IMG/VR virus record: IMGVR_UViG_3300012231_000008
Coordinates: 4,334-68,333 of that record
DNA length: 64,000 nt
Strand: one strand, 5' to 3'
From: a virus
Taxonomy: Duplodnaviria > Caudoviricetes
A model generated the notes under the pieces. The model was not told where the DNA came from, made no database searches, and saw only the letters and a list, made by a program, of their open reading frames with translations. The position numbers and the translations under genes are program-made. The stretch's first letter is position 1, and each line of letters begins with the position of its first letter. This document shows, piece by piece, positions 12,685 to 34,805 of the stretch.

Positions 12685-13071
12685 ATGACCATGCATCGCT
12701 ACATCTTCAATGTGTCCACAGATACGGGCACATCCGCGCTACAATCCGGCGATACCGGCAAGTCGGTTTTCGGCCAAGTTGTGCAATTGCGCTGGAACCC
12801 GACATCGGTGGATACAGGTGGCGATTTGTACGTCGCGCTACTCCCCAAGGACGGCGACACCGGGGACGGCTTCACTATCTACTCCAAGAACGACTGCCTC
12901 GGCAGCAACTTCACGCGGTTCCTTGGATATCCCTCGTCACACATCGACGGCTTCGACACCGGCCGCGGTGGCGCAGCCCACCCATACGCTGCCGGTGAGC
13001 GCCTCCGTATCAAGATTCTCCCCGGTCAGAGTGAGTGCCGCGGCAGGCTCTACGTCTACGTGAAGGAGTGA
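12685..13071 (+). CDS. Putative virion beta-sandwich protein with 5 DTG motifs
   Basis: STDTG, GDTG, VDTG, GDTG, FDTG in 128 aa. Confidence 0.7.
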   Translation: MTMHRYIFNVSTDTGTSALQSGDTGKSVFGQVVQLRWNPTSVDTGGDLYVALLPKDGDTGDGFTIYSKNDCLGSNFTRFLGYPSSHIDGFDTGRGGAAHPYAAGERLRIKILPGQSECRGRLYVYVKE

Positions 13072-13074
13072 GAC

Positions 13075-13227
13075 GTGGGCCGCCTGATCCGCTCGGTGCT
13101 CATTCACTCCATCCTCTTGCGACCTGCGGGCCGACCGCCAACCGGCGGCGCCGTCGGCAACTCGGTCCTGCGTGAGGACGGCACGTTTGTCCTGCGCGAG
13201 GACAGCTCGCAGATCTTGAGGGAATAG
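13075..13227 (+). CDS. 50-aa hypothetical virion-associated peptide (not in ORF track)
   Basis: GTG start after AAGGAG; ends LREDGTFVLREDSSQILRE. Confidence 0.55.
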   Translation: MGRLIRSVLIHSILLRPAGRPPTGGAVGNSVLREDGTFVLREDSSQILRE

Positions 13228-13230
13228 CTC

Positions 13231-13791
13231 GTGGCCGACACGAAAGTCAGCGCCGAGACGCTCGTCAGTGCGCTTGCCGCCAACCACAGATTCTACGTGG
13301 TCTGCGATACCGGCGCCGCGCCAGACTCTAACGCCGCGCGAGCATCCCAGGTCAAGACTTACGTGGGCATTGGCACCGCGACCAATGATGATGCCGCGGC
13401 GGGTGCGATTGGAGAGACCCAGGTTGCAACGGGGTCAGCCGTTGCTCTGACCACGACGACGCCAGCCAACGTGTGCTCAATCTCGCTGACTGCTGGAGAT
13501 TGGGACGTTTCGGCCGTGGCCGGTTTCACCGGAGCTGGTGCCACCGTAACCAGTAATATCACGCTATCGCACAGCACCACGAGCGCAACCCAAGACGGGA
13601 CTGTCGGCAAGCAGAACACATTTCGCTTCAACGGCGGCTCCGGCTTTACCGACGTCAACCATGGCGTCTCTCTTTCGCCGTACAGGTATTCTCTCGCCGC
13701 CACGACGACCGTCTATCTGGTGGCAACCGCCGTGTTCTCGACATCCACCTACGCTGTCAGCGGTCGGCTTTATGCCCGAAGGATGCGCTAG
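13231..13791 (+). CDS. Putative fibre/decoration protein (1 DTG)
   Basis: T/A/G/S-rich beta protein; GEIGE-like GAIGETQ motif; C1q/TNF-like strand pattern at end. Confidence 0.55.
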   Translation: MADTKVSAETLVSALAANHRFYVVCDTGAAPDSNAARASQVKTYVGIGTATNDDAAAGAIGETQVATGSAVALTTTTPANVCSISLTAGDWDVSAVAGFTGAGATVTSNITLSHSTTSATQDGTVGKQNTFRFNGGSGFTDVNHGVSLSPYRYSLAATTTVYLVATAVFSTSTYAVSGRLYARRMR

Positions 13792-13794
13792 CCC

Positions 13795-14967
13795 ATGATC
13801 CCCCACTACGGCAAGCGTGAGGCAGGGCTGCTTACCGCAGCAAGTCCGGGGGATACCCTCTATTTCCCGTTCGCCTCCTACAACGACTCCGGCGACTCCG
13901 AGGTGCTGAGCGGTCTGGCCGTCACCGATATCGAAGTTCTGAAAAACGGCCTCCCGACCGTGCGCGCCACGGACTCCGGCTATTCGCTGATCTCCGACAC
14001 CGGCATGGTGGGTGATCGTGGCGGCCTTTACCGCTGCTCGATCCAGCTCTTCAACACCGCCGACGACGCCTCCTTCTATGCATCGGGGTCCTGGTATCAG
14101 GCGTTCGTGGACGCCGTCACCATCGATGGCAGGACAGTTCGGTTTTGGCTCGGATCGTGGGAGATCGGGCGCCAACGCGTCGATGTGCGCGCGCTGATCG
14201 GCGACACCGGCGCCGCCAACTGGCTGCAGCAGACGTATGCGGCGGGCTTCGCTGACACTGGCGTGAACCAGCGCCTCGGGCAAATACAGTCCGACGTGGA
14301 CACGGGGCTGAGAACCCACGTCAACGACCTCGACACGGGCCTCCACGACACCATCGCCGATTTGGATACTGGCTTGCGCGACCATGTCGACAACACCGAT
14401 ACTGGCCTGCGTCGGTTCCTAGACAATATGGACACCGGCATCAAGGACCGCTTCAACGATCTCGCCGAGGATACGGGTGGAGTAAATATCAACTCGATCC
14501 AGGGTGATACTGGCGCGGCCGGCTGGCTCAAGGCCATCTTTGCCAACGGTTTCAACGATACCGGCATCAACGAGCGCCTCGCCCGCATCCAGTCGGATGT
14601 CGATACTGGGCTGCGCGTTCATATCGACGACAGCGATACTGGCATCAAGGATGTCATTGCGGATCTCGACACCGGTCTGCGAGACTACATCGACAATGCG
14701 GATACCGGGCTGCGCGCCATCCTCCAGACGACCGGCGTCAACGTCACAAAGATCGTGGGCGACACTGGTGCCGCCAACTGGCTCAAGACCGTCTACACCT
14801 CCGGCTTCACCGACACCGGCCTCGAAGAGCGCCTGACCACTATTGAGACCCAGACCAACAAGCTCACCTTCGACACCGGCAACGAGCTGCACGCCGACAT
14901 CCGCAAGGTCAATAACGTCACCGTTCAGGGCGCGGGCTCCAATGGCAACGAGTGGAGGCCTGAGTAA
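13795..14967 (+). CDS. Repeat protein with 18 DTG motifs, probable fibre/whisker
   Basis: Globular N-terminus then 11-residue DTG-periodic coiled coil. Confidence 0.75.
   Translation: MIPHYGKREAGLLTAASPGDTLYFPFASYNDSGDSEVLSGLAVTDIEVLKNGLPTVRATDSGYSLISDTGMVGDRGGLYRCSIQLFNTADDASFYASGSWYQAFVDAVTIDGRTVRFWLGSWEIGRQRVDVRALIGDTGAANWLQQTYAAGFADTGVNQRLGQIQSDVDTGLRTHVNDLDTGLHDTIADLDTGLRDHVDNTDTGLRRFLDNMDTGIKDRFNDLAEDTGGVNINSIQGDTGAAGWLKAIFANGFNDTGINERLARIQSDVDTGLRVHIDDSDTGIKDVIADLDTGLRDYIDNADTGLRAILQTTGVNVTKIVGDTGAANWLKTVYTSGFTDTGLEERLTTIETQTNKLTFDTGNELHADIRKVNNVTVQGAGSNGNEWRPE
14200..14885 (+). repeat. 33-nt (11-aa) periodic repeat nested in a roughly 100-aa duplicated unit
   Basis: DTGLRTHVNDL-DTGLHDTIADL-DTGLRDHVDNT-DTGLRRFLDNM-DTG; GDTGAAxWL...GFxDTG unit occurs three times. 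Confidence 0.9.
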
Positions 14968-15200
14968 TGGCCACCACCATCAGCAAGCGAGTGCCGTCGG
15001 GGGCGTCCGCTAGCAACACGCCCCGTGTCTCGATGGGCAGCCACAACGCCTCCTACGATTGCTGGGGCGGCTCATGGGGCAGTTCGTGGCTCCTTGCTTG
15101 GCACAACTTCCTTTCCGCCTCTGAGCTATCTGGCAACATCACCCAGCGTGTGACGAGCACGCAGGTGACGGCCAACAATACCAAACGGGTGACGCTCTGA
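14967..15200 (+). CDS. Small hypothetical protein
   Basis: TAATG coupling; WGGSWGSSW motif. Confidence 0.6.
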   Translation: MATTISKRVPSGASASNTPRVSMGSHNASYDCWGGSWGSSWLLAWHNFLSASELSGNITQRVTSTQVTANNTKRVTL

Positions 15201-16238: not shown

Positions 16239-17081
16239 ATGACAATGAGCGTCTTAAAAGGCCTGCACCGCAGGGCACTCGGTCTCAGTAAGGACGGCGA
16301 GACGATGTCGCGAGCTGGCTTCGTTGCCGGCGGCGAAGACAAGCCGGTTATCGTATTCCCTGGCCCCGACACGGTCGCCATATTCGACGACTTTCTCGGC
16401 GATCTGGTTGGAGATGAGTGGATCGCTGGATCCTCGGATACCGGCCAAGCTACCGGCACTGGCGTTCTGGCTACTTCGGCGGTATCGGCGACCAACGGCA
16501 TCTACCGCATGACGTCGTCGGCATCATCGACCCAGACGCCAGCCGGCGGCGCACAGAGCATCAACACACCACCAAACTGGAAGGCGAACCAAGGTCAGGC
16601 GCTCAATAAGCCCTTGCGCTTCGGAGCCCGCGTCAAGATCGCCGACCTCGCCAAGAACAACGTCTTTGTCGGTCTGACAGACACCGGCGGCGCTGAGATA
16701 GCGGTGTACGACACAGGTGGCGGCATCCTTACCCCGGCTGCTGACTATGTCGGTTTCCTCAAGGGTGGCGGCGCTGCGGCCGGAACGACCGCCCTGACTT
16801 GGCGTCTGGTGACTGGCAAGGCCGGCGTCGACCAGGTCGCTACTACCGGCATCACCCCAACCACTAACGTCTACGACGTGCTTGAGGTCGAGGTGAGCCC
16901 AGACGGCAACGTGGCAACAGGCTTCATCAACGGGAAGTACGCGGCGCAGATCATCAGCGCGGCTACCACTCCCACTGTCGCCCTGGCTGGCGGCGTGTGG
17001 CGGGCCAACACGGAAGCCGCCGCCGATGCAGTCGATGTTGACTGGATGGCCATTTCCGCCCCTCGAGACACAGGATTGTAA
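16239..17081 (+). CDS. Putative capsid decoration/jelly-roll virion protein with 4 DTG motifs
   Basis: FDDFLGD start of beta-sandwich; SDTG, TDTG, YDTG and C-terminal RDTGL. Confidence 0.6.
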   Translation: MTMSVLKGLHRRALGLSKDGETMSRAGFVAGGEDKPVIVFPGPDTVAIFDDFLGDLVGDEWIAGSSDTGQATGTGVLATSAVSATNGIYRMTSSASSTQTPAGGAQSINTPPNWKANQGQALNKPLRFGARVKIADLAKNNVFVGLTDTGGAEIAVYDTGGGILTPAADYVGFLKGGGAAAGTTALTWRLVTGKAGVDQVATTGITPTTNVYDVLEVEVSPDGNVATGFINGKYAAQIISAATTPTVALAGGVWRANTEAAADAVDVDWMAISAPRDTGL

Positions 17082-17083
17082 GA

Positions 17084-17779
17084 ATGCTCGATGCGGTCGT
17101 CACCGACCTAGAAGAAGATGCCGGCGCCCCAGCGGCGCCGGCAGCGTCTCGGACCAAGCTCAAGGGCATCGCGATCCTTGGCTCGCATCCGGCGACCGTT
17201 GAGGCTGCCCCATTCGCGGACGAGGGCTGGCTGATCTATTCGTGCTCTCCGCATAATGTAGAGCGGCGCAAACTCCCGCGCGTCGACCAGTGGTTCGAGG
17301 TGCATGACGTCATTGAGGACGAGACGAGGGCATTCGGCTATCTCAAAGCTATCTCAGAGATGCCGTTCGTGTGGATGCGCGACCAGCGTGCTCTCAAGTC
17401 TGGCCATTTTCCCGGCGCTCGGCAGTATCCCGAGAAGGATCTCAAGGGCACGTCGACCGTCCAAAAGGTCAAGGTTCCCCAGCCCAACGGCAGCGTCGAG
17501 GTTCGCCAGGTCGAGGTGCCCAACGGAGACGGTCTCTTCTGCCCCTACATGTTCACGTCATCGATCGCCTACATGTTGGCGAAGGCCATCGTCGACTGCA
17601 AAGAGCAGGACGTCCCACAGATCGGCATCTGGGGCGTGATGCAGGCGAGCGAGACCGAGTACACGTATCAGCGTCCCGGCATCCAGTATTTCCTGCATCA
17701 GGCGTCCAAGCACTACGGCATTAAGGTGTTGGCCAACCGCGAGTCGTGCCTGTTCGACATGCCGACCTGGAAGTGGTGA
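17084..17779 (+). CDS. Rossmann-like transferase candidate (pattern reminiscent of sialyltransferase/Maf-like folds)
   Basis: IAILGSHP...RVDQWFEVH...FTSSIAYMLAKAI...IGIWGV...EYTYQRP; fold assignment is inference. Confidence 0.45.
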   Translation: MLDAVVTDLEEDAGAPAAPAASRTKLKGIAILGSHPATVEAAPFADEGWLIYSCSPHNVERRKLPRVDQWFEVHDVIEDETRAFGYLKAISEMPFVWMRDQRALKSGHFPGARQYPEKDLKGTSTVQKVKVPQPNGSVEVRQVEVPNGDGLFCPYMFTSSIAYMLAKAIVDCKEQDVPQIGIWGVMQASETEYTYQRPGIQYFLHQASKHYGIKVLANRESCLFDMPTWKW

Positions 17780-18813
17780 TGCGGGTCGCTGTCGTCGGTG
17801 GCGGTCTCTTTGGCTGTACGGCTGCAATCTACGCTGCTCGCGCCGGCCATGACGTGCATCTGTTTGAGGCGAAGCCGGAGCTGATGTGCGGTGCCACGGC
17901 CGGCACCTACTCACGATTGCATCGCGGATACCACTACCCGCGGTCAGCCGCGACCGGCAGAGAAAGCCGCCGGGCTGAGAAGAGCTTCCGCGCTGAGTAC
18001 GGCGCAGCGGTGATCGACAGTGGTGACCAAATCTATGTGGTGCCATCGAGGCGCAGCCACGTAACGGTCGACCAGTTCCGAGACTTCCTCGACAACGAGG
18101 GCTTGCCGTTCTCCGAGGATGGCGGCGTGTTCCAGGTGACGGAGCCCCGCATCAACCTCGCCGTCCTGCAGACGATGGTGCGGCAGAAGGTGCAGGCGGC
18201 GGGTGTCCAAGTCTACCTGAATACATGTGTACACGAGTATGACAGGTTCGACCGGGTCGTCGTCGCCACCTACGCGACGCTGAACCAAGTCCTGGGCGAT
18301 CTCGGCATGCCGTCGCAGGAGTACAAGTTCCAGGTGGTCGAGCGGCCCGTCGTCCAACTACCCGAGGCGTTCCGCAACACCTCCATCGTCGTCGTCGATG
18401 GCCCCTTCGGCTGCATCGATCCGCTCGACGAAACCAAGTTCCACGTTCTCGGCCACGTCACTAAGACGATCCACTGGGAGAACACGGGGACCAAGGCATT
18501 CGTTCCTGAGCGTCTTGAGCCGCTCATCGATGCGGGGCTGATCAATCCTTTCAGCGGGCCGACGAACGTGTGGGAGGTTGTGCATCACCTCGCAAGATAC
18601 GTTCCTGGCGTAGGCGATGCAGTGTATCAAGGGTCTAGCTTCGTGGTTCGCGCCGTGCTGGCGCACCAGGAGGCAACAGACCGGCGCCCCACATTGGTAA
18701 CGCGCCACAACGAGCGGGTGATCTCGGTGTTCTCCGGCAAGCTCGGAACCGCAGTGCGAGCCGCCCAAGAGGTGCTCGAGGCAATCGAAGCCCGCGAGAT
18801 GATTGCCGCCTAA
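17779..18813 (+). CDS. FAD-dependent oxidoreductase
   Basis: MRVAVVGGGLFGC (GxGxxG), RLHRGYHYPRS, FSGKLGT. Confidence 0.9.
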   Translation: MRVAVVGGGLFGCTAAIYAARAGHDVHLFEAKPELMCGATAGTYSRLHRGYHYPRSAATGRESRRAEKSFRAEYGAAVIDSGDQIYVVPSRRSHVTVDQFRDFLDNEGLPFSEDGGVFQVTEPRINLAVLQTMVRQKVQAAGVQVYLNTCVHEYDRFDRVVVATYATLNQVLGDLGMPSQEYKFQVVERPVVQLPEAFRNTSIVVVDGPFGCIDPLDETKFHVLGHVTKTIHWENTGTKAFVPERLEPLIDAGLINPFSGPTNVWEVVHHLARYVPGVGDAVYQGSSFVVRAVLAHQEATDRRPTLVTRHNERVISVFSGKLGTAVRAAQEVLEAIEAREMIAA

Positions 18814-19400
18814 TGCTCGCCGTCACCGGGTTCCACTCAAAGATCGTTGATGAGCTGAGGAAGCTGCTGCCAGGGGGCGAGGAGATCGTCCCCTTCGATC
18901 GCCTGATTGATCCAAAAGTGTGGTGCGATCGGTATTTGTTTTGTGCCGGCGTCCTACGACCGAAGCGCCTTGAGGAGCAGAGCCTCGACGAGCGTGACGA
19001 GAGCTGGCATGTGAACCTCATCCGCCCGATGCTTCTGTGCGATGAAATTCTGGCCCGCAATAGCCGAGCCCGCATCGTTGTGATGGGCTCGGAGTCCGGC
19101 TTCTCCTGGTCCTTCGACGGCACCTACGCGGCGGCCAAGGCGGCGCTGCATCGCTATGTCGAGACCAAGAAGCTGAAGCCTGATCAGCAACTCGTGTGCG
19201 TGGCGCCTAGTATCATCGAAGATTGCGGCATGACCATGCGCCGCGAGGATACCGAGAACCTTGAGCGCCGTAGAAAAGCCCACCCAAAGCAGCGGTTTCT
19301 CAAGGCTGTTGAGATCGCCAAACTGATCCATTTCCTTCTTTACGTGGATCAGGGATACATCTCAAACACAGTGATTCGGGTTAACGGCGGGGGAAACTAA
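18813..19400 (+). CDS. Short-chain dehydrogenase/reductase (SDR)
   Basis: YLFCAG, IVVMGSESG, YAAAK (YxxxK), CVAPSII. Confidence 0.85.
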   Translation: MLAVTGFHSKIVDELRKLLPGGEEIVPFDRLIDPKVWCDRYLFCAGVLRPKRLEEQSLDERDESWHVNLIRPMLLCDEILARNSRARIVVMGSESGFSWSFDGTYAAAKAALHRYVETKKLKPDQQLVCVAPSIIEDCGMTMRREDTENLERRRKAHPKQRFLKAVEIAKLIHFLLYVDQGYISNTVIRVNGGGN

Positions 19401-20204
19401 GTGCTCGCAGTGGTGAGCTTTTTCTGGGTTGACAAGTCCCGCGCCAATCAGCGCACGGCGCGGCCCTGGCGCGATCCGAAAACTGGTGAGACGCACATGC
19501 TCACCATCAACCCGGATGAGGTGCGCATCTGGGACCGCATGGTGGCGCGCAATCTCTCTATCCCACACCGCAGAGTCTGCGTGACCCATCGCCCGGACTG
19601 GATCGACTTCATGGAGACGGTGCCGCTGGACATGGCAAAGCATGTGCCCGGCACGTGCCTCGTGAAACTGCAGGCGCACAAGCCCGGCGGTGTCGCCAAG
19701 GAAGGCGATAACGTCGTGTTGATGGATGTCGACTGCGTGGTGACGGGAAACCTTGATCCGCTGTTCACGTCGGCAACCCCCGGCATCACGAGCTGGTGGT
19801 GGAAAAACCCGAACTATGAGCGGGGCGGCAAGCGCGGGTTCATTCAGGGGTCGCTGCAATATTTTACGGTCGGCGCCACCGAGTTCCTATGGCGCGACTT
19901 CGACCCACGATCGACGATGTCATGGCTCAATCGCCGCTTCGGTGGCGCCGAGCAATGCTGGATATCTGAGCGCATGAACGCGGAATATCCCGCGCCCGGC
20001 TGGCAATGGAACGTCGCGCATTGGACTGAGGCCGATGGCGTCTACGGAGCCGGCCGCCTCTTCAACGGCAAGATGGGTGCAGGCGTGCAGACCGAGTTGC
20101 CCGCCAATGCACGGATCGTCTTCTTTCCTGGCAACCGCAGTGCGATGCAGCCTGATACGCAAGCCCAACATCCATGGATCAAGGAGTTTCTTAGCCAGCC
20201 ATGA
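19401..20204 (+). CDS. GT-A fold glycosyltransferase (paralogue 1)
   Basis: RMVARNLSIPHRRVCVTH, HVPGTC, LMDVDCVVTGNLD (DxD), GGAEQCWISE. Confidence 0.8.
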   Translation: MLAVVSFFWVDKSRANQRTARPWRDPKTGETHMLTINPDEVRIWDRMVARNLSIPHRRVCVTHRPDWIDFMETVPLDMAKHVPGTCLVKLQAHKPGGVAKEGDNVVLMDVDCVVTGNLDPLFTSATPGITSWWWKNPNYERGGKRGFIQGSLQYFTVGATEFLWRDFDPRSTMSWLNRRFGGAEQCWISERMNAEYPAPGWQWNVAHWTEADGVYGAGRLFNGKMGAGVQTELPANARIVFFPGNRSAMQPDTQAQHPWIKEFLSQP

Positions 20205-20887
20205 TGGAATATCTGCCTCCCGTCCAGCAGCGCCCAATGTCGCCTCAAGGCAACATTAACCCGCCTAATGGTGCCTCAAAGTACCACGGCGACATCGCCG
20301 AGGGCTACGACGCCAAGCGCGTCAAGGACGCCAAATGGGTTGTCGAGCAGGCCGTCATCGAGCGCATGCTTTCCGAACTGCCGGCAGGCTCTACCATCCT
20401 TGACTGTCCCGTCGGCACTGGCCGCTTCCTCGACGTTTACAAGTCCAAGGGGTTTCAGTTCGTTGGCGCCGATCTCTCCGGCGACATGCTGATCCAGTCG
20501 GCCCTCAAGCTGCTCCCTCAGCCAGAGGTCGAGCGCTGGGTGGCGGCATGTAACGAGAAGGAAACCGTGCTACCGCTGCGCATCGGCAACAACGCGTTGG
20601 TCAACGGCGACGTCCGTAAGATCGGGCTGCCGGACAAGGCGGTAGACGCCGCAGTTATGTGTCGGCTTACTCGGTGGCTGAGTCCAGAGGACAATCAGGT
20701 CGCTATGCGCGAGCTGATGCGCGTCACGAAGGGTCGGATCATCTGGACGGCGCGCGTTGCCAATCACCCGCATGCGCGCACCGTCGAGCTGTTCGAGGCC
20801 GCGCTGAAGCCTGGCGGTTGGAAGATCGCTCGGAACGAGGCGGGCTACATCACAGACTATCGGATCCTCGAGGCCCGTCCGGCATGA
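20201..20887 (+). CDS. Class I SAM-dependent methyltransferase
   Basis: ILDCPVGTGRF, GADLSGDML, GDVRKIGLPDKAVD. Confidence 0.9.
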   Translation: MMEYLPPVQQRPMSPQGNINPPNGASKYHGDIAEGYDAKRVKDAKWVVEQAVIERMLSELPAGSTILDCPVGTGRFLDVYKSKGFQFVGADLSGDMLIQSALKLLPQPEVERWVAACNEKETVLPLRIGNNALVNGDVRKIGLPDKAVDAAVMCRLTRWLSPEDNQVAMRELMRVTKGRIIWTARVANHPHARTVELFEAALKPGGWKIARNEAGYITDYRILEARPA

Positions 20888-21282
20888 GCGATCTGCGTGA
20901 CTTCCTGAACTGGTTCGACGGCTTCGCCGAGAACATCGAGAAGACGCCGACGGCCAAGCAGTGGGCAAAGATCAAGGAGCGCGTGGGCGCGCTGCAGTTG
21001 CAGAAGGTGGAGCCAGAGACGCAGGTGACGCGTCATAATGGCCCCAGCACCCTGGTTACGGTGCGGGCTCCCAAGCCACGCAAGCCTCACCCTACCGCCT
21101 TCAAGTTCATCATCGACAATCAAGGTGTGGTCCGCCGCGGCAATGGCGAGCCCGTCCTGCCCAGCGACGTGACCGACATCATCCACGACTACCGCGACGG
21201 CGAGGCCGATCTGCGATCGATCATCTGGGCCGATGGCTCGACTGGCCTCAACGGCCAGGATCTCACGATCGTTGCTGCATGA
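20884..21282 (+). CDS. Hypothetical protein
   Basis: ATGA coupling both ends; FLNWFDGFAE...PTAKQWAKIKE. Confidence 0.65.
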   Translation: MSDLRDFLNWFDGFAENIEKTPTAKQWAKIKERVGALQLQKVEPETQVTRHNGPSTLVTVRAPKPRKPHPTAFKFIIDNQGVVRRGNGEPVLPSDVTDIIHDYRDGEADLRSIIWADGSTGLNGQDLTIVAA

Positions 21283-25553: not shown

Positions 25554-25562
25554 GAGGCATCC

Positions 25563-27542: not shown

Positions 27543-27545
27543 GGC

Positions 27546-27881
27546 GTGGCCAAGCGCGAAGTGTGGCATCCGGCTCTCTACGAGCGGGGAGACGTCAGTG
27601 CCATCCAGGCACTGTATCGGTACGCGCAGTTGGCAGAGGTGGCGTGGGACGTTGGGACGATGGGTTCGCCCCCGCCAGCGCCGTCAGAGTTCGAAGTCAA
27701 GCGCGCATTGGACTGGATCATCAACCAGGCGGCGCAGACCTACGACAATTCATTTGTCCCCGACGATCCCAATGGCCGCATGGCCGCCTTCATCGAGGGA
27801 CGACGCAGCGTCGGCCAGCAGATCGTCAAGCTGATGAGGCTCTCGGGGAAGGTGCTCGAGGGCAGGGATAAGCAAGAGTAG
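27546..27881 (+). CDS. Small conserved post-portal protein (Bbp19-like)
   Basis: AAFIEGRRSVGQQI motif and position. Confidence 0.7.
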   Translation: MAKREVWHPALYERGDVSAIQALYRYAQLAEVAWDVGTMGSPPPAPSEFEVKRALDWIINQAAQTYDNSFVPDDPNGRMAAFIEGRRSVGQQIVKLMRLSGKVLEGRDKQE

Positions 27882-27907
27882 CGGCACGTCACAATCCAGC
27901 AGGAACC

Positions 27908-27933
27908 AACGCGGCCTTTGCGCCGCGTTTTTT
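27908..27933 (+). terminator. Intrinsic terminator
   Basis: AACGCGGC/GCCGCGTT stem plus T-tract. Confidence 0.7.
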
Positions 27934-27955
27934 ATTGCAACCAACCAGAGGAACC

Positions 27956-29065
27956 ATGGCCGAAGAAAGCTTCACGGAAGGCGCTACGGATGACGCAGCG
28001 GTCTCGACTGCAGGTGAGGGGTCTGGCGCAGCGGATACGAAAGGCGCCGCAACTGCGGGAGCCGAAGCGGGCAAAGCAGCCGAAGCTCCACTCGCAGCCG
28101 GAGACGGCAAAGGAGCAGGCGCCCCCGCCGTGGCTGCGAAGGGCGCGACGCTTGCTGCCGGAGCTGACGTAGCGGCCGAGGATGCTGCCAAAGATGCAGA
28201 CAAGGCCAAGGCTAGCGCCGCCTGGTACAACGAGCAGTGGCGCGAGAAGATCGCCGAGCACATCGCGGCCGGCGACAAGAAGGTCTTCGACAAGGAACTC
28301 AAGCGCCTCCAGCGCATCGCCGATCCTGCCGGCATCTACGGCATGTATCGCGAGCTCGAGGGCAAGTTCACTGGTGGTGGCCTCGTCAAGCTTCCCGGTA
28401 AGGACAGCAAGCCCGAGGACGTTGCAGCCTTCCACAAGGCGCTCGGTGTCCCTGAGAAGGTCGAGGACTACTTCAAGGATCTGCAGCTTGAGAACGGCGC
28501 GGTCATTGGCGCCGACGACAAGCAGTTTTTCGAGAAGTTTGCCGCGGACATGCACCAGGTTGGCATGACGCCGGAGCAGATGAAAAAGGCGGCTAGCTGG
28601 TACTACAAGGACCAGGAGGATCGGGCGGCGCAGCAGGATGAGGCCGACGACACCTTCCGGCGCGAAGCCGAGTCGAAACTGAAGGAAGAGCTTGGCCCGT
28701 CCTATAAGCGGGTGACCAGCGCCATCGCCTCGATTTTTGCCGCGGCGCCTGGCGGTAGCGATCCCAGCAACCCCAACTCTCTCTTCTCCCGGTTGCTCAG
28801 CGGGCGCACATCCGACGGCCGCGTCATCGGCAACGACCCCGACATGGTCCGCTTCCTCGCCTCCATGGTGCAGGAGATCAACCCGGAGATGTCGGTTGTT
28901 GAGCCTGGCAACCAGGGCGGCATGTCGATCGATGCGGAGCTTGCGCAGATCGACAAGTCGCGCCGTGAGAACCGCGCGGCCTACAACAAGGACTACAAGA
29001 TGCAGGCGCGCGAGCGTGAATTGCTCGAAGCGCAGATGAAGATTCAGTCCCGGCAACGTGGCTGA
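27956..29065 (+). CDS. Capsid scaffolding/assembly protein
   Basis: Ala-rich N-terminus, acidic helical body, directly before capsid gene. Confidence 0.8.
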   Translation: MAEESFTEGATDDAAVSTAGEGSGAADTKGAATAGAEAGKAAEAPLAAGDGKGAGAPAVAAKGATLAAGADVAAEDAAKDADKAKASAAWYNEQWREKIAEHIAAGDKKVFDKELKRLQRIADPAGIYGMYRELEGKFTGGGLVKLPGKDSKPEDVAAFHKALGVPEKVEDYFKDLQLENGAVIGADDKQFFEKFAADMHQVGMTPEQMKKAASWYYKDQEDRAAQQDEADDTFRREAESKLKEELGPSYKRVTSAIASIFAAAPGGSDPSNPNSLFSRLLSGRTSDGRVIGNDPDMVRFLASMVQEINPEMSVVEPGNQGGMSIDAELAQIDKSRRENRAAYNKDYKMQARERELLEAQMKIQSRQRG

Positions 29066-29238
29066 TGCGCGGCCAACCCGGCTTGCCGGCGCCGCGCCCT
29101 AGTAAACACGCGTCAAACCCCGACCGTTCGTGAAGCCCCTTAGAGTGTGAGTAGCGGCCCCATCAGGGCAACCCGCGAAAACAAGCAGAGGACAACCAGA
29201 ACGCAACGGCATCCCCAACCGCTCAAGGAGATGCCAAC

Positions 29239-30072
29239 ATGGCTGAGAGCGCACCACAGGTACAATACCGCCGCGAGCTCGTGGCGGAGTTTGAGGAGGG
29301 CATGAGCTGGCTGCGCCAGACCACCGTCACTGAGGCGGTGATCAAGGGCAACACAGCGACCTTCCTGGTTGCAGGTTCCGGCGGCGCTTCCGCCGTGACC
29401 CGCGGTATCAACGGTCTGATTCCCGCTCGCGCGGACAGTCTGACCCAGACATCCGCAACGCTGGTTGAGTGGCACGATCTTGTTCGCAAGACGCGCTTCA
29501 ACATCTTCCAGTCGCAGGGCGACCAGCGCGCCCTGATGCAGCAGACCACGCGTAAGGTTCTCAATCGTCGTCTCGACGCTGACGTCATCGCTCAGCTCGA
29601 CACGGCGACCAACAACCTTGGTGGCGCTTCGACCTTCGCTCTGAGTGCTGCCGCGAAGGCAATCGTTACCCTCGGCGAGAATGAGGTTCCCGTCGAGGAA
29701 GTCGACAAGATGTGGGCTGTCGCGACCCCTGCGGTGCGCGGCTACATCATGCAGCTCCCCGAGGCAACGAAGATCGACTACGTCGATCAGAAATTCCTCA
29801 CGGGTCCCGCGCGTCGGCTAATGCGTTGGGCCGGATTTAATTGGGTGTTCCACCCCAATTTGACCGGCGTCGGGACCTCCAGCGAGAAGTGCTACTTCTA
29901 CCATCGCGATGCGATCGGTAGCGCATTTGACGCTGGCGAGGGTCTCAACACGGCTATCGGCTACGACGACGAGCAGGACTACTCGTATGCTCGCGCTTCG
30001 TCGTTCACCGGCGCCAAGATGTTGCAACAGTCCGGCATCGTGCAGTTCCTGCACGACGCGTCGGCTATCTAA
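29239..30072 (+). CDS. Major capsid protein
   Basis: AAGGAG RBS; QYRRELVAEFE...FYHRDAIG...MLQQSGIVQF; position. Confidence 0.85.
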   Translation: MAESAPQVQYRRELVAEFEEGMSWLRQTTVTEAVIKGNTATFLVAGSGGASAVTRGINGLIPARADSLTQTSATLVEWHDLVRKTRFNIFQSQGDQRALMQQTTRKVLNRRLDADVIAQLDTATNNLGGASTFALSAAAKAIVTLGENEVPVEEVDKMWAVATPAVRGYIMQLPEATKIDYVDQKFLTGPARRLMRWAGFNWVFHPNLTGVGTSSEKCYFYHRDAIGSAFDAGEGLNTAIGYDDEQDYSYARASSFTGAKMLQQSGIVQFLHDASAI

Positions 30073-30086
30073 GGAGGGCAACCACA

Positions 30087-30365
30087 ATGGCTACCTACTC
30101 CAAAGATAAAATGAAGCTCATGAGTCAGGGCCTCACTGGCTTTAAGATCTGGAGCTACCACGACACCGGAACGGTGCTCGATGTGGCCGGATTTTTTGCC
30201 AATGCCGGCGACATGGGTGTGGACAGCGGTGACCTGATCATGAGTAGCGGTGGTGGCGTGACGAAGATCGTCAGGGCCGCTGCGTTTGCTCCCGGTTATG
30301 TGCAGGATACGGGCGCGACGCAGGGCACGACCGGCCCCGCTACCCTCATCGGCGATACCGGCTGA
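30087..30365 (+). CDS. Small capsid-associated protein with 3 DTG motifs, ending in DTG
   Basis: Follows MCP before terminator; YFANA-like GFFANAGDMGVDSGDLI. Confidence 0.75.
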   Translation: MATYSKDKMKLMSQGLTGFKIWSYHDTGTVLDVAGFFANAGDMGVDSGDLIMSSGGGVTKIVRAAAFAPGYVQDTGATQGTTGPATLIGDTG

Positions 30366-30387
30366 TCCAGAGTATCAGAGAACTACG

Positions 30388-30419
30388 AGGGGCCGGCATC
30401 GCGCCGGCCCCTTTGCTTT
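30388..30419 (+). terminator. Intrinsic terminator after capsid genes
   Basis: AGGGGCCGGC/GCCGGCCCCT stem then TTGCTTT. Confidence 0.75.
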
Positions 30420-30439
30420 GCAACCCCCAAGGAGATGTC

Positions 30440-30826
30440 ATGGCAGTCGCCACCACTAAGCCTACCGTTGCTACGCCTGCAGGCACCGAGCTTGTCAAGC
30501 AGACCATGCGTCAGGTGCAGCCCAAGAAGGCCGCGCCGTCGAGTCTGCAGTCGCTCGGCCAGGATTTCGACATGCTGGCCCACAAGCCCGGCCCCGATGT
30601 CACGCTCGCGGATGTTCTCAAGCCCGTCTACTGGGCCAACGTCGCCAATCTGGTGGCCAAGGATGCCTTGAATACCCGTCGCGACAAGCTCGGCTCCCTG
30701 ATCTACGTGCGCCCCGAGAGCGGCGCGTACAAAGCCATCCTCACCATCGAGGGCATCTCGCTCGACCAGTTCGGGCAGGCCAACGGCCTCAAGGTCGAGC
30801 CCTGGCTCCTCGACAACAAGGAATAA
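30440..30826 (+). CDS. Hypothetical protein
   Basis: AAGGAG RBS, ATG 30440. Confidence 0.65.
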   Translation: MAVATTKPTVATPAGTELVKQTMRQVQPKKAAPSSLQSLGQDFDMLAHKPGPDVTLADVLKPVYWANVANLVAKDALNTRRDKLGSLIYVRPESGAYKAILTIEGISLDQFGQANGLKVEPWLLDNKE

Positions 30827-30832
30827 CGCGCT

Positions 30833-31471
30833 GTGGCGACCAAACTCGGCATTTTCAATGCAACGCTCGACGAACTCGGGCATCGCCCCGTTACCGATAC
30901 GGGCGAGCCAGTGGAGGCGGCGCGCGTGCTTTCGCGCCGCTACGACCGGGTGGTCGCCGATTGCCTCTCCGAGGCGAGTTGGAATTTCGCCATGGAGACC
31001 ATCGAGGCGACGTCGGACACGGGCGTCACACCAGAGTTCGGCTACGGCGAGGTGTTCGCTAAGCCCTCAGATTGGGTGCGAACCATCAGCGTATCGATGG
31101 ACGAGTATTTCTCCTACCCGCTCCTGCAATACTACGACGACGCCAACTTCTGGTCGGCGGACGTGAGCCCGCTCTACATCCGCTACGTCTCGAACGACAC
31201 CGGGTTAGGTATGGACATGACCCGGTGGACGCCGGCGTTCACCCGCTATGTCGAGCTGGAACTGGCGCACCGCGCCTGGCGCATCAACAACGACAAGTCG
31301 CTGCGCGAGGAGATCGGCCAGATGCGTGATCGGGCGCGCAAGGCCGCGAAGAACCAGGACGCCATGAATGAAGCGGCAACCAAGTTCCCGCCGCCATCCT
31401 CATGGACGCGGTCGCGTTGGGGTGACGGCGGCGGGAACGATCGCGGCGGCCGCGGCAGCTTGACGGGATGA
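30833..31471 (+). CDS. Tail tubular protein A (adaptor, T7 gp11-like); 3 DTG
   Basis: IFNATLDELG...YDRVVADCL...WNFA...FAKPSDWVR...IRYVS...FTRYVELELA. Confidence 0.85.
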   Translation: MATKLGIFNATLDELGHRPVTDTGEPVEAARVLSRRYDRVVADCLSEASWNFAMETIEATSDTGVTPEFGYGEVFAKPSDWVRTISVSMDEYFSYPLLQYYDDANFWSADVSPLYIRYVSNDTGLGMDMTRWTPAFTRYVELELAHRAWRINNDKSLREEIGQMRDRARKAAKNQDAMNEAATKFPPPSSWTRSRWGDGGGNDRGGRGSLTG

Positions 31472-31475
31472 CCTT

Positions 31476-34400
31476 ATGACGAAAGCGAACGTCCCGTTCC
31501 TCAGCTTCAACCGCGGGCTGATTTCTCCGAAAGCCCTGGCGCGCGTCGATATCGATAAGTTGCGGCTTGCGGCTGAGGTGTTTACGAACTGGATTCCCAA
31601 AACAACGGGGGCCATGATCATCCGACCCGGCACGAAGTGGCTGGGAAGCTCCCTCAACGACACAGGCGCTGAGTTTTTGGAGTTCGTGGCCTCGACCGAC
31701 GATGTGGCATTGCCGGAGATCACCCACAACAAGATGCGGGTGTGGCTCGGGACCGATCCGCACAATATCTCTCTGCTCGGTCGGCCAGCGGTCGACACCG
31801 TCGTTGCGATAGCCGATACGGGATGGTCGAATACATCGACCGGCGGCGCGTTTGCGACGTCCGCCTCCGATCTAATGCCGACCATGAATGGGTACACGAC
31901 GTCTACCGCGGAAATAACCGCATCCTCCGATGATGCTGTGCAGGAGCGGCAAGCGTGGCGTGCTGCGGACGACGATAACGCCACTTATTGGCAGGACACA
32001 GGCAACAGCGAGGCGTCGACGCTGCCCACATGGTGGAACGTCGACTTCAGCTCCAACGGCGATACCGGCAACCGCAAAGCGGTCCGTTCCTATAGCATCC
32101 GTTCAACCGAGAACGCTGCTTTTGTGTTGTCCGCTCCCAAGAAATGGTCGCTGCTTTCCAGCAACTGGGACACCGGAACCTACGCGACCGATACGGGAAA
32201 GTGGACGCTCACGGATACGCAAGGCTCTGAGACTGGCTGGGCGGTCAACGAGAGGCGCACCTATCGGCTTCCCGATGCTGATACCGGCACGATCGACATC
32301 AAGCGGCACTGGCGGCTCTATTTTACTCAGATTGTCGGGGGTGCCGACGCCTCGCTCCGCATCTCTGAAATCGAAATGTTTGATGCCGCTACCGCGCAGC
32401 AGGTGAAGCTACAGGGCGGCAAGCGCGTCTTCAATGCCACCGCCACGGGTTCCCTGGCGCGGCTCGAGAGGACCGTGTTGGTGAGTGATACGGGGAGCGA
32501 GCACAGCCTTGCCATCTATGTCGAGCGTGGGCCGATCACTCTGCGAGTCGGATCAAGCCAGCGTGGTGACGACTACATCAATGAGACCGCGTTGGGAACA
32601 GGCTACCACAACTTAGCCTTCACGCCGCTAGGCAACTTCTACATCACGCTGCAGCACGATGGTCTGGTAGATCGCATCGTCTCCTCTATCGCCATCGGCG
32701 ACAGCGGCACCGTCGAGCTCACCGCGCCGTGGGAGGCGGCTGATCTTGAGAACATCCGCTACGACCAGTCCGCCGATGTCGTCTATGTGGACTGCGCGGG
32801 TGTCCGGCCGCAGAAGATCGAGCGACGCGGCACTGGGCGGTCGTGGAGTGTCGTCGACTTCGCGCCTAACTTCGGGCCGTTCCTGCCCACTGCTTCATCG
32901 ACAGCAAAATTGCAATTCGGGGCTTACATCGGCAACGCAACGCTCAACTCGGACATCCCGCTGTTTACGGCTGATCACGTCGGAGCATTGGTGCGGGCTT
33001 TTCACGGTGGTCAGGACGGCGTGTGGCGACTTGGCGATACCCAGGTCAGCACCGACGCCATTGAAGTAACCGGCTACAGCGATACTGGAGGCGGCGCAGA
33101 CAGTGAGCGTCAGCTTGTGTTCACTGTCACCGGAACCTGGAGCGGATCCATTGTCATTGAGCGCTCTTTTAACGGGCCGGAGGAAGGGTATCACAGCGTC
33201 GATACAAACTTCGTTGCCGGAGGGCTTGGTGCTGAGGATACCGGCAGCTTCACGCGCACCATCAATGACCGGGATGACAACGTGGGGGTGTGGTATCGCG
33301 CACGCGTGAGCTCGCACACGAGCGGCGTGGCCGTCGTCAGCATAACCTACAAGGGTGGCGGCATTACCGGCGTTGCGCGCATCATCGGCTACAACTCCGC
33401 AACGGACGTAGATGTTGAGATTCTGTCGCGCTTCTCCGATACGGGGCCTACCGACAACTGGCAGGAGGGACACTGGTCGGCCCAGCAAGGATTCCCGACC
33501 TCAGTTGCATTGCACGGCGGTCGCCTCGCCCACGCCGAAGGCGGTCAGCTCTTCATGTCTGTGTCCGACGATTACGAGAACTACGACGATGGCACGGTGG
33601 GTGATGCTGGTCCCGTTGTGCGCGCGCTGGGCTCGGGTCCGGTCGATGCTATCCGCTTCCTAATCTCAAAGTTGCGGCTCCTGATCGGCACGGCTGGTGC
33701 GGAAATCGCGCTAACAACCTCCTCGCTCGATGAGCCGGTGACGCCGACCAACTGCAACGCTCGGTTGTTCTCCAGCAAGGGCAGCGCCAACGTGCGAGCG
33801 TTACACCTCGATACCAGGGCCATCCATGTGGGTCGGGCGGGTAACCGTATCTACATGATCGGCCCATCGGATGCAGCCTTTGGAGACTATGCCTCGTTTG
33901 ATCTGACTCGGTTGGTGCCGAACCTGCTTGATGCCGGCGTTGTCTCGATCGCCGTGCAGCGCCATCCCGACACGCGCGTGCACTGCGTTCTTGCCGACGG
34001 CAAGGTCGCCATCCTCACCTACGAGCCAGAGGAGGAGGTGGTGTGCTGGTCGATGTGGGAGGGCGATACGGGCACAGGGGCGGCTGTGGAGAAAGTTGTC
34101 GTGCTGCCTGGAAGCGGCGAGGACGCCGTCTTCTACCACGTCCGACGCACCATCAACGGCACGACTAAGCGGCACCTCGAGAAGTGGTCGAAGGAGTCGG
34201 AATGCGTCGGCGACACCGGCCTGACCTGGATCATGGATTGCTCGAGGAGCTACACGGATACAGGGCGCTCCGCTGCGCTCACGGATATCGCCACGCATCT
34301 GGTGGGCGAGTCGGTGGTGGTCTGGAGTGACGACACGGGCTCGATCCCAGGTGTCGACAGATCATCCGATGTCAACGGCGTGCAGACGCGCTACACGGTC

Positions 34401-34805
34401 GATACAGGTGGCGACGTCACGCTCTCGACAGCCGTGCATCATGCCGTGGCTGGGCTGCCGTACCGCGCGCTCTGGAAGAGTGCCAAGCTTGCCTATGCGT
34501 CCGAGGCCGGCACCGGGCTTGCGCAGTTAAAGCGCGTGGACAAGATCGGGTTCGTGTTGTGGCAGACCCACAATAACGGGCTGTTCTTCGGCAACGATAC
34601 CGGCAACCTCGACCCGCTCCCGCGCATCATCGACGAGGGCGCCGAAGTCGATGCGGACAAGATATTTGCGGCCGAAGAGCTGATCGCGATGCCGTTTCCA
34701 GGTTTGTGGAAGGCGGACAGCCGCATCGTGCTGCAGGGCAAATCGCCAAGACCGGCAACGGTTCTCGCTGCTATTCCCGGCGTCGACGTCAACGAGAAAG
34801 TCTAA
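31476..34805 (+). CDS. Tail tubular protein B (nozzle, T7 gp12-like), enlarged; 17 DTG
   Basis: SFNRGLISP...GAMIIRPGT; YDQSADVVY; GFPTSVALHGGRL; AVAGLPY. Confidence 0.85.
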   Translation: MTKANVPFLSFNRGLISPKALARVDIDKLRLAAEVFTNWIPKTTGAMIIRPGTKWLGSSLNDTGAEFLEFVASTDDVALPEITHNKMRVWLGTDPHNISLLGRPAVDTVVAIADTGWSNTSTGGAFATSASDLMPTMNGYTTSTAEITASSDDAVQERQAWRAADDDNATYWQDTGNSEASTLPTWWNVDFSSNGDTGNRKAVRSYSIRSTENAAFVLSAPKKWSLLSSNWDTGTYATDTGKWTLTDTQGSETGWAVNERRTYRLPDADTGTIDIKRHWRLYFTQIVGGADASLRISEIEMFDAATAQQVKLQGGKRVFNATATGSLARLERTVLVSDTGSEHSLAIYVERGPITLRVGSSQRGDDYINETALGTGYHNLAFTPLGNFYITLQHDGLVDRIVSSIAIGDSGTVELTAPWEAADLENIRYDQSADVVYVDCAGVRPQKIERRGTGRSWSVVDFAPNFGPFLPTASSTAKLQFGAYIGNATLNSDIPLFTADHVGALVRAFHGGQDGVWRLGDTQVSTDAIEVTGYSDTGGGADSERQLVFTVTGTWSGSIVIERSFNGPEEGYHSVDTNFVAGGLGAEDTGSFTRTINDRDDNVGVWYRARVSSHTSGVAVVSITYKGGGITGVARIIGYNSATDVDVEILSRFSDTGPTDNWQEGHWSAQQGFPTSVALHGGRLAHAEGGQLFMSVSDDYENYDDGTVGDAGPVVRALGSGPVDAIRFLISKLRLLIGTAGAEIALTTSSLDEPVTPTNCNARLFSSKGSANVRALHLDTRAIHVGRAGNRIYMIGPSDAAFGDYASFDLTRLVPNLLDAGVVSIAVQRHPDTRVHCVLADGKVAILTYEPEEEVVCWSMWEGDTGTGAAVEKVVVLPGSGEDAVFYHVRRTINGTTKRHLEKWSKESECVGDTGLTWIMDCSRSYTDTGRSAALTDIATHLVGESVVVWSDDTGSIPGVDRSSDVNGVQTRYTVDTGGDVTLSTAVHHAVAGLPYRALWKSAKLAYASEAGTGLAQLKRVDKIGFVLWQTHNNGLFFGNDTGNLDPLPRIIDEGAEVDADKIFAAEELIAMPFPGLWKADSRIVLQGKSPRPATVLAAIPGVDVNEKV

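Follow-up and report, generated by a model that had tools for sequence, protein, structure and literature searches.

To our knowledge, glycosylation of phage virions has been documented so far in only a few mycobacteriophages, and no short sequon common to several proteins has been defined for this process. Chlorovirus PBCV-1, a eukaryotic giant virus, carries N-linked glycans on its major capsid protein; its machinery is host-independent, includes methyltransferases making O-methyl sugars and acts on atypical sequons of virion proteins. The general O-glycosylation of Bacteroidetes is host-encoded and operates outside the cytoplasm. The bacterial enzyme NGT/HMW1C, of the GT41 family and GT-B fold, builds Asn-linked glycans at many sites on surface-exposed adhesins. 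Glycogenin (GT8), UGGT (GT24), the large clostridial toxins and NleB-type enzymes transfer sugar from a nucleotide-sugar directly onto a glycoprotein or the side chain of a protein, and recognize folded partners, not a tripeptide. The capsid proteins of mycobacteriophage Che8 and its relatives reportedly receive glycans from the phages' own glycosyltransferases (Freeman et al. 2023, Cell Host Microbe, as cited in PMC11256854), and virus-encoded enzymes glycosylate the PBCV-1 capsid (PMC9614988, PMC7019647). The sequon of Bacteroidetes is D-(S/T)-(A/I/L/V/M/T) (PMC8550257), and that of the cytoplasmic N-glycosyltransferase NGT/HMW1C in adhesins is NxS/T (PMC5303269).

The phage described here is an uncultured member of a podovirus clade, found only in a freshwater-sediment metagenome. 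We analyzed a stretch of 64,000 nucleotides (the window), in which the genes described below between 12685 and 34805 lie on the plus strand. Seven proteins totalling 2397 aa contain 51 Asp-Thr-Gly (DTG) tripeptides versus 2.15 expected from composition (Poisson P = 7e-51), whereas only one is found in the remaining 14,264 aa. The latter is the single DTG of a 4977-aa protein; MCP, portal, scaffold, terL, an 869-aa protein and every enzyme have none. In the tagged proteins, DTG is by a wide margin the most over-represented tripeptide, and position 3 is Gly at 51/51 sites, with DTA and DTS both at zero. The seven proteins are mutually unrelated in sequence, and two of them have DTG at the very C-terminus. 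Our recount returned the same number for each protein as the initial annotation, and the per-ORF tripeptide test it proposed gave an extreme DTG excess. This pattern is suggestive, though not proof, of a tail that is sugar-coated at a three-residue address.

Four tagged proteins are encoded between 12685 and 17081. A 128-aa protein with five DTG (12685-13071) has no Pfam or PHROG match, and its family is found in DTG-rich phages only (4/6 genomes). It is followed by a 186-aa protein with a tail-fiber C-terminal domain (13231-13791; phrog_11393 tail fiber, E = 2.6e-13), whose lone DTG is not significant by itself (P = 0.12), and by a 390-aa repeat protein (13795-14967) with 18 DTG, many spaced 11 residues; relatives have 9-35 DTG. 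The 280-aa protein at 16239-17081 carries four DTG, one of them C-terminal (DTGL), and in all five DTG-rich genomes having this family the next gene belongs to the family of 17084-17779. The latter encodes a 231-aa protein of a phage family with 741 representatives, present in one copy in each of six DTG-rich genomes and also in one DTG-poor locus. Between MCP and tail tubular protein A lies a 92-aa protein (30087-30365) with DTG at residues 26, 74 and 90-92, so that it terminates in the motif; its DTG-poor homologs have zero DTG. Tail tubular protein A (adaptor, 30833-31471; phrog_394, E = 3e-31) contains three, exactly the number seen in most of 42 DTG-rich loci. Tail tubular protein B (nozzle, 31476-34805; phrog_376, E = 4e-121), a homolog of T7 gp12-type tail nozzles (PDB 8CK1 'Tail Nozzle', E = 7e-39), has 17, with 17/23 DT pairs continuing with G (P = 3e-17 for this protein alone). 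Tagging had initially been ascribed to outer virion proteins. This holds for tail and fiber proteins but is too broad, as DTG is absent from MCP and from 8664-9869 and 10269-11048, two probable virion proteins that both match 'virion structural protein' PHROGs. We count these untagged proteins against glycosylation. That tail and fiber proteins alone are tagged, and not every exposed protein, would also suit an alternative that we regard as unlikely, namely, that DTG is an unmodified tail motif (a turn, ion-binding or carbohydrate-contact loop) recognized by an assembly factor or the host surface, with the enzymes encoded nearby serving, for example, modification of the host envelope or of DNA.

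With its internal repeats, the 390-aa protein accounts for 18/51 DTG, which might suggest that the excess is artefactual, stemming from repeats, composition or a DNA-level signal. This reading is refuted, and we assign it a negligible probability: 33 DTG are left without the repeat protein (P = 1e-31), tail tubular protein B is non-repetitive, and the excess recurs in 120 homologs of the latter. Furthermore, the word GAYACNGG has 55 plus-strand matches versus nine on the minus strand; 52 of the former fall within a gene in frame 0, and every Asp, Thr and Gly codon is represented at DTG sites. The signal thus acts at the protein level, as the initial annotation had argued.

All 120 metagenomic homologs of the nozzle, at 56-76% identity, carry 10-22 DTG. 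About 14 sites in the nozzle alignment are more than 85% conserved, the chief substitute being DSG, and conservation is 0.80-0.88 for motif residues versus 0.47-0.57 for the flanks (P = 3e-5). DTG is present in at least one member in 74 alignment columns, indicating that sites are still being gained. By contrast, nozzles of sister phages (35-49% identity) have no DTG; in these and other DTG-poor homologs, as well as in the solved nozzle 8CK1, the equivalent positions are occupied by gaps or by loop residues (G/S/T/D/N). Judging from these comparisons, DTG tagging is a trait of one whole clade, the nozzle fold is independent of the motif, which the sister-clade nozzles and 8CK1 lack, and the DTG sites are probably surface-exposed, a prediction from alignments rather than coordinates. 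That Asp-Thr-Gly is plausible as a turn former and that most sites are positionally conserved would be compatible with an unmodified structural motif. Such a motif is harder to reconcile with DTG in sequence-unrelated proteins and at free C-termini, with same-fold homologs devoid of DTG and with fresh sites that keep arising in variable loops.

The untagged proteome of the clade avoids DTG. Non-tag proteins of DTG-rich genomes contain 11 DTG versus 30.5 expected (P = 5e-5), and in the same proteins 1.9% of TG pairs have D in front of them versus 5.8% expected (P = 2e-6). In DTG-poor genomes, 21 DTG are found versus 23.9 expected. For permuted tripeptides the ratios range from 0.62 (GDT) to 1.12, with four out of five within 0.98-1.12. 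Avoidance across the proteome is not predicted for a passive structural motif.

Two putative GT-A glycosyltransferase genes, paralogs of each other, share a strand with the fiber genes and terL and are located between the two. The first, 19401-20204, matches phrog_1962 (glycosyltransferase, E = 1.6e-6). According to HMM and tree analyses, its orthologous group is represented in every DTG-rich genome, and it provides the sole GT-A in genome G002 and in two relatives of 53-55 kb. A DxD at D109/D111 is invariant in this group; DxD is the classic metal- and nucleotide-sugar-binding site of GT-A enzymes. The second, 21279-22115, belongs to a paralogous group found in 5/6 genomes. Its AF2 model (pLDDT 92.3, pTM 0.91) retrieves LgtC (1G9R), the UGGT catalytic domain, LARGE1, glycogenin-2 and GT6 in Foldseek with probability 1.0, at a TM of about 0.5 (0.45-0.53) and only 10-14% sequence identity; among solved folds, the nearest are those of retaining enzymes. 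The D97/D99 DxD (LDLDT) of this protein is invariant in 43 sequences and aligns to that of glycogenin, which is also the best PDB profile match (E = 0.2). The GT-A family has no match at E <= 5 in Pfam (including Glyco_transf_8) or NCBIfam, and one of its members is labeled glycosyltransferase in RefSeq. Both proteins are thus predicted to be GT-A-fold glycosyltransferases, 21279-22115 from its model and 19401-20204 by homology, the latter being a candidate for the sequon-reading initiating enzyme and the former for the elongating one.

The surrounding genes encode a class I SAM methyltransferase (20201-20887; Pfam Methyltransf_11, E = 5e-9) and accessory enzymes: an FkbM-family methyltransferase (22112-22936; Pfam Methyltransf_21, E = 1e-13; TIGR01444, E = 1e-19), an FAD-dependent oxidoreductase (17746-18813; Pfam DAO, E = 5e-14; 3/6 genomes) and a short-chain dehydrogenase/reductase (18813-19400; Pfam adh_short_C2, E = 4e-11; 2/6 genomes). 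No sugar-nucleotide synthesis genes were recognized, which we count against glycosylation. The proposal that this enzyme cluster builds a glycan fits the two GT-A genes, but most of the cluster is made up of methyltransferases and oxidoreductases, which differ from one relative to the next. Its conserved core consists of one GT-A, a class I methyltransferase and a 215-aa kinase-like P-loop protein (22933-23580; GPPGCGKST). The AF2 model of the latter (pLDDT 93.9) has an adenylate-kinase/deoxynucleoside-kinase fold, with adenylate kinase, dCK and UMP/CMP kinase as top Foldseek matches (TM about 0.5), and besides Walker A it has invariant R96, R103, R140 and R144 (lid arginines). Searches with this protein placed it in no curated kinase family, with only AAA_18 and AAA_33 matching below threshold, and neither a PDB sequence match nor a homolog among cultured phages was found. 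It is the best conserved clade-specific protein, with 63-95% identity over the best 120 metagenomic matches, is single-copy in all DTG-rich genomes and adjoins GT-A in siphoviruses too.

What a protein of nucleotide-kinase fold would contribute to protein glycosylation is not evident, which we count against that process. In its distribution, the P-loop protein follows the motif as closely as GT-A does (6/6 DTG-rich genomes versus 0/10 DTG-poor). Together with its high conservation, this lends some appeal to the possibility that DTG is the site of a non-sugar modification, either phosphorylation of Thr or Asp by the P-loop protein or methylation by a methyltransferase of the cluster, with GT-A acting on a different substrate. 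The interchange of T and S and the avoidance of the motif would suit any hydroxyl-directed enzyme, and PMC13445384 reports that a phage tail protein is methylated in a host-dependent manner. We nevertheless consider this scenario improbable: the fold most resembles those of adenylate, UMP/CMP and deoxynucleoside kinases, all of which act on small molecules, and not that of any known protein kinase, the methyltransferases differ between relatives, and the ever-present GT-A would be left without a target.

The distribution of the GT-A family follows that of the motif, as anticipated in the initial annotation: it is present in 10/11 DTG-rich records versus 0/10 DTG-poor ones. The former comprise 6/6 full genomes (1-3 copies) and 4/5 further records, the one miss being a record that is 32% complete; the latter comprise five complete or near-complete genomes and the five closest DTG-poor relatives. 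The expected behavior of the tail tubular A and B homologs was likewise confirmed, in that phages without the cassette enzymes are also without DTG. Genome size is not a confounder, because two DTG-rich phages of 53-55 kb are roughly as large as the DTG-poor ones. However, since the DTG-rich phages form one clade, the co-occurrence of motif and enzymes is in effect one evolutionary event. The trio of GT-A, class I methyltransferase and P-loop protein recurs by synteny in loci L009, L021, L130 and L133, and is also found within late structural modules of unrelated siphoviruses, once beside a collagen-like fiber protein. Phages outside the clade with the GT-A/P-loop cassette show no DTG enrichment, so the cassette alone does not imply the motif. 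This is a point in favor of an unmodified tail motif, whereas the location of the cassette in late structural operons and the absence from the phage of a thymidylate-synthase-like hydroxymethylase that could feed DNA hypermodification speak against it.

We consider it moderately probable that tail and fiber proteins undergo sequon-directed O-glycosylation, with D-(T/S)-G read by a putative phage-encoded cytoplasmic system. The glycosylation interpretation of the initial annotation is thus supported; that any residue is modified, that the modification is a sugar and sits on Thr, which enzyme reads DTG and how the glycan serves the tail are all points that we infer. Late in infection, a GT-A of the 19401-20204 type would take sugar from a host nucleotide-sugar and attach it, within exposed DTG loops, to the hydroxyl of Thr or, rarely, of Ser in the tail nozzle, the adaptor, the small protein encoded after MCP and the fiber-like proteins. 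The paralogous GT-A, 21279-22115, would extend the glycan. Its tailoring, for example by O-methylation or phosphorylation, might then fall to the SAM methyltransferases and the P-loop kinase-like protein, joined by the FAD and SDR oxidoreductases in phages that have them. The remaining phage proteome would have been purged of DTG, avoiding accidental modification. More tentatively, and with slightly less than even chances in our estimate, the new GT-A family, class I methyltransferase and P-loop protein form a portable cassette that equips virion proteins with a tailored O-glycan, its action being directed by D-(T/S)-G in one widespread environmental podovirus clade, where the sequon was planted in tail loops and purged elsewhere.

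If a small soluble phage enzyme does read a three-residue sequon that can be planted genetically, virion glycosylation would be shown to be widespread among environmental phages, whose hosts are probably Gram-negative. Such a system would offer a compact tool for site-directed O-glycosylation in the bacterial cytoplasm. It would also provide a sequence rule predicting glycosylated phage-tail surfaces, with bearing on adsorption, stability and antibody recognition. The purge of DTG would correspond, in proteins, to the avoidance of restriction sites. A proteome-level footprint of this kind, with non-target proteins avoiding a motif, is new and could help to find further enzyme/sequon pairs in viral genomes.

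Among known systems, the Bacteroidetes sequon is similarly a three-residue O-glycosylation address with Asp followed by Ser/Thr. The parallel drawn initially with D-(S/T)-x of Bacteroides holds for these two positions but fails at the third, which is hydrophobic or Thr and never Gly in Bacteroidetes, and Gly in the phage; no link of the phage (62% G+C) to Bacteroidetes is recognizable. Glycogenin, UGGT, clostridial toxins and NleB-type enzymes share the GT-A fold and DxD with the phage proteins, although the likeness is at fold level only, without a Pfam GT8 match. As proposed for the phage, NGT/HMW1C is a cytoplasmic enzyme reading a short sequon, and the PBCV-1 enzymes are unrelated to those of the phage. 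In the mycobacteriophages, phage-encoded glycosyltransferases likewise probably modify structural proteins of the phage itself, in the cytoplasm and ahead of assembly, and here, too, the glycosyltransferase genes are close to structural genes on the same strand. However, the mycobacteriophages are actinobacterial siphoviruses in which capsid and tail-tube proteins are the targets, whereas those proposed here are the nozzle, adaptor and fiber-like proteins of a podovirus clade. This clade is further distinguished by a three-residue motif that is avoided proteome-wide, by a GT-A family that is unclassified and by the P-loop kinase-like protein as its partner.

The Asp-Thr-Gly (DTG) tripeptide is concentrated in seven proteins of the window, all encoded on the + strand. 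Translation of all long + strand ORFs gave five copies in the protein at 12685-13071, one in 13231-13791, which carries a tail-fibre C-terminal domain, 18 in a repetitive 390-aa protein (13795-14967), four in 16239-17081, three in 30087-30365, whose C-terminal three residues are DTG, three in the tail adaptor (tubular A, 30833-31471) and 17 in the non-repetitive, 1109-aa tail nozzle (tubular B, 31476-34805). The nozzle is identified by matches to phrog_376 (E = 4e-121) and PDB 8CK1, 'Tail Nozzle' (E = 7e-39); besides the nozzle, tubular A and 13231-13791, no tagged protein was assigned to a family. All remaining window proteins (14,264 aa) contain a single DTG, within the 4977-aa protein. Every per-protein count of the initial annotation was thereby reproduced, as were its zeros for the major capsid protein (MCP), portal, scaffold, large terminase (terL) and ejection protein. 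Composition predicts 2.15 DTG in the seven tagged proteins, and the excess is pronounced in the whole set (Poisson P = 7e-51), without the repetitive 390-aa protein (P = 1e-31) and in the nozzle alone (P = 3e-17); the lone DTG of 13231-13791 is not significant on its own. No other tripeptide approaches the DTG excess in the tagged proteins, and we give practically no credence to an artefact. Of the 55 matches to the nucleotide pattern GAYACNGG on the + strand, 52 fall in frame 0; the - strand has only nine, and DTG sites make use of all synonymous codons. Thus, selection acts on the peptide, as had been proposed from the varied, in-frame codons. Flanks of the window sites show no strong residue preference. 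The tagged proteins also contain four DSG and one ETG, and NTG, DTA and DTS are each absent from them.

The source genome is a single viral contig of 68,333 bp (86% complete, 62% G+C). Megablast of 12000-35000 found no cultured near relative, and nozzles of known phages share no more than 30% identity with this one. Among sequencing runs, the sole full match is a freshwater-sediment metagenome, probably the phage's source, and no RNA run was listed. DTG is absent from the MCP (29239-30072), from the internal or ejection proteins (35677-36387 and 36399-39008) and from two ORFs matching 'virion structural protein' PHROGs (8664-9869 and 10269-11048). The latter two show that the tag marks a subset of tail/fibre proteins, not every exposed protein; the initial description of tagged 'outer virion proteins' is therefore overly broad, the MCP and the two ORFs carrying no DTG. 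Both ORFs share an operon with the tagged proteins, and 10269-11048 additionally has a weak Laminin_G_3 match. The small terminase gene (Terminase_2, E = 5e-15; 6813-7463) precedes the large one (23982-25553) by 16.5 kb, with the fibre genes and the enzyme island between them. An ORF at about 23570-24049, just before terL, looks ParB/Srx-like by eye (LLGGAHR) and has no family match. Upstream of the late operon are a C5 cytosine DNA methylase, an HNH endonuclease and a minus-strand Methyltransf_24 gene (1231-2916, 4862-5521 and 11045-11890(-), respectively).

Metagenomes contain hundreds of nozzle homologues, and each of the best 120 (56-76% identity) has 10-22 DTG. When these are aligned, DTG is present in over 85% of sequences at about 14 sites, the usual substitute being DSG, and DTG occurs in at least one sequence at 74 columns, many of them in variable insertions. 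Conservation is 0.80-0.88 for the motif residues, against 0.47-0.57 for their flanks and 0.58-0.71 for those amino acids elsewhere (P = 3e-5). Judging from these alignments, nozzle DTG motifs appear to be islands of constraint in loops, with interchangeable Thr and Ser and with sites still being gained, the pattern expected of a recognition site that contains a hydroxyl acceptor. A single-sequence query of IMG/VR retrieved nothing, and an alignment-based query retrieved 80 loci, which split cleanly into 42 DTG-rich and 38 DTG-poor. Nozzles of the former are at least 50% identical to that of the window, with 10-22 DTG in full-length copies and fewer in truncated ones, and most of these loci have exactly three DTG in tubular A. 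Nozzles of the latter are 35-49% identical, about 890 aa long and contain 0-3 DTG. At the 17 sites of the window nozzle, both the DTG-poor homologues and the solved nozzle 8CK1 have gaps or G/S/T/D/N, indicating that the nozzle fold does not depend on DTG; the motif was seemingly added at loop or indel positions, which the alignments suggest to be exposed. The densest tagging seen is that of G004:C1:37-2772 (locus L105), homologous to the 390-aa repeat protein, with 35 DTG in 911 aa.

Outside the tagged proteins the motif is avoided. Proteins with fewer than two DTG in six DTG-rich genomes (G000-G005, including that of the window; 135,568 aa) contain 11 DTG versus 30.5 expected from composition (P = 5e-5), whereas five DTG-poor genomes contain 21 versus 23.9 expected. 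For permuted tripeptides in the same proteins, the lowest observed/expected ratio is 0.62 (GDT) and the highest 1.12, with four of the five at 0.98-1.12. Conditional tests concur: in non-tag proteins of DTG-rich genomes Asp precedes TG in 1.9% of cases versus 5.8% expected (P = 2e-6) and Gly follows DT in 3.9% versus 8.2% (P = 0.003), while the corresponding values for DTG-poor genomes are 4.0% versus 6.3% and 6.7% versus 8.4%, the last not significant. In tagged proteins, Gly follows 238 of 304 DT pairs. Non-tagged proteins of DTG-rich genomes also have a lower frequency of the DT dipeptide itself (281 in 135.6k aa) than do DTG-poor genomes (225 in 68.5k aa), and a mild depletion across the six DTG-rich genomes (ratios about 0.63) extends to DSG, DTA and GDT. 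Enrichment on few proteins coupled to depletion elsewhere is the footprint that would be expected of an enzyme acting, within the infected cell, on any accessible DTG. The motif might instead be functional without modification, the enzymes serving something else; we regard this as doubtful, since depletion in all other proteins would not be expected of a passive structural motif.

Which genes track the motif was assessed by comparing the genome of the window and five complete DTG-rich ones (79-101 kb) with five DTG-poor ones (49-52 kb), by clustering of all proteins and again with six-frame ORFs and profile HMMs. The family of the paralogues 19401-20204 and 21279-22115 is present in all six DTG-rich genomes (1-3 copies) and in none of the DTG-poor ones, as is, in single copy, that of the 215-aa protein 22933-23580; both are also missing from the nearest DTG-poor relatives, for which the records are partial. 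The co-occurrence anticipated by the initial annotation is thus borne out for these two families, although the association has a single evolutionary origin, the DTG-rich clade. Further DTG-rich records contain the paralogue family in four of five cases, the one without it being only 32% complete. Two of these five records, of 53-55 kb (93-94% complete), have one copy each, which removes genome size as an explanation for the association. The FAD oxidoreductase, SDR and individual methyltransferases are variably present among relatives. The 17084-17779 family shows the same distribution (single copy in six of six, none in the five DTG-poor genomes compared), but it is not DTG-specific because it is present in one DTG-poor locus, L052.

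The paralogue family matches neither Pfam nor NCBIfam, and its DxD is invariant in an alignment of 43 sequences. An AF2 model of 21279-22115 (pLDDT 92.3, pTM 0.91) retrieved LgtC (GT8), the UGGT catalytic domain (GT24), LARGE1, glycogenin-2 and GT6 enzymes with Foldseek, placing the protein, by predicted fold, among GT-A glycosyltransferases. The best PDB profile matches are glycogenins across the DxD region (E = 0.2), and 19401-20204 matches phrog_1962, 'glycosyltransferase'. The tree of the family comprises 19401-type, 21279-type and third groups; the first is present in every DTG-rich genome and is the sole GT-A in one (G002), and the second is present in five of six. The 22933-23580 protein contains a Walker A loop (GPPGCGKST) and shares 63-95% identity with its 120 best metagenomic matches; its model (pLDDT 93.9) is closest to adenylate, UMP/CMP and deoxynucleoside kinases. 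For 17084-17779 there was no Pfam match, singly or over 25 members, and no PDB sequence match; the only Atlas lead is MptE-like (0.83), and PF01973 has no match in the genome. Its N-terminus may, on visual impression, carry a CstII/Maf-like motif. This large unnamed phage family (741 representatives at E <= 1e-3) is conserved at about residues 25-122 and 150-228, and its gene directly follows the DTG-bearing 16239-family gene in the five DTG-rich genomes having the latter.

Distant GT-A members (28-36% identity) were traced to their own contigs. In two HK97-like siphoviruses (L130, L133) the gene lies within the head-tail block, flanked by class I methyltransferases and by a gene homologous to that of the P-loop protein (HMM, E = 1e-51 and 2e-33), and the island of L130 comes after a 553-aa collagen-like repeat protein. 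The latter (L130:5927-7588, ENA contig_114886), with about 20 copies of GRDGSNGLDGKDG(T/S/A)PG(A/V/T)D, is encoded directly upstream of a faint MptE-like/methyltransferase/GT-A/methyltransferase/P-loop island in the head-tail module, and could be a glycosylated fibre. Another member (E = 1.7e-56) is encoded by the siphovirus record 'Tetraselmis viridis virus S20' (NC_020840.1, L128). Its island (26950-32533), between capsid and head-closure genes, contains the GT-A homologue, two genes annotated as 'sialyltransferase', another glycosyltransferase and a methyltransferase. In the smallest DTG-rich relatives the gene order is GT-A, methyltransferase, P-loop, terL. Recurrence of this trio (in the window 19401-20204 with its paralogue, 20201-20887 and 22933-23580) in unrelated late gene blocks identifies it as a mobile late-gene module, and its placement argues for a virion-directed function. 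A kinase and a glycosyltransferase could also serve DNA hypermodification, but this is unlikely given the location of the cassette in late structural operons and the lack of a thymidylate-synthase-like gene in the genome (record 86% complete). S20, L130 and L133 show no enrichment of DTG or any other tripeptide, except the L130 collagen-like repeat; if DTG is a sequon, it is specific to the podovirus clade.

The best-supported mechanism, which we favour with some reservation, is O-glycosylation of D-(T/S)-G. The 19401-type GT-A would glycosylate Thr, rarely Ser, in the cytoplasm, and the glycan would then be lengthened by its paralogues and tailored by methyltransferases, the kinase-like protein and accessory oxidoreductases. 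Weighing against this mechanism are the single origin of the DTG-rich clade and the lack of tags on the MCP and on the two probable virion proteins. That DTG is the site of another hydroxyl-directed modification is, in our view, rather improbable. If glycosylation is correct, the system would represent sequon-directed glycosylation of phage virions by an unclassified GT-A family, with a proteome-wide avoidance signature. Our literature searches turned up no paper that describes DTG as a motif of phage proteins. Glycosylation in the Bacteroidetes that involves a comparable sequon belongs to a host envelope pathway. Virion glycosylation encoded by phages is documented in mycobacteriophages (Freeman et al. 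2023, as cited in PMC11256854). The Bacteroidetes O-glycosylation sequon, D-(S/T)-(A/I/L/V/M/T) (PMC8550257), resembles the phage DTG but excludes Gly, and GT8 and GT24 enzymes have only their fold in common with the phage GT-A.
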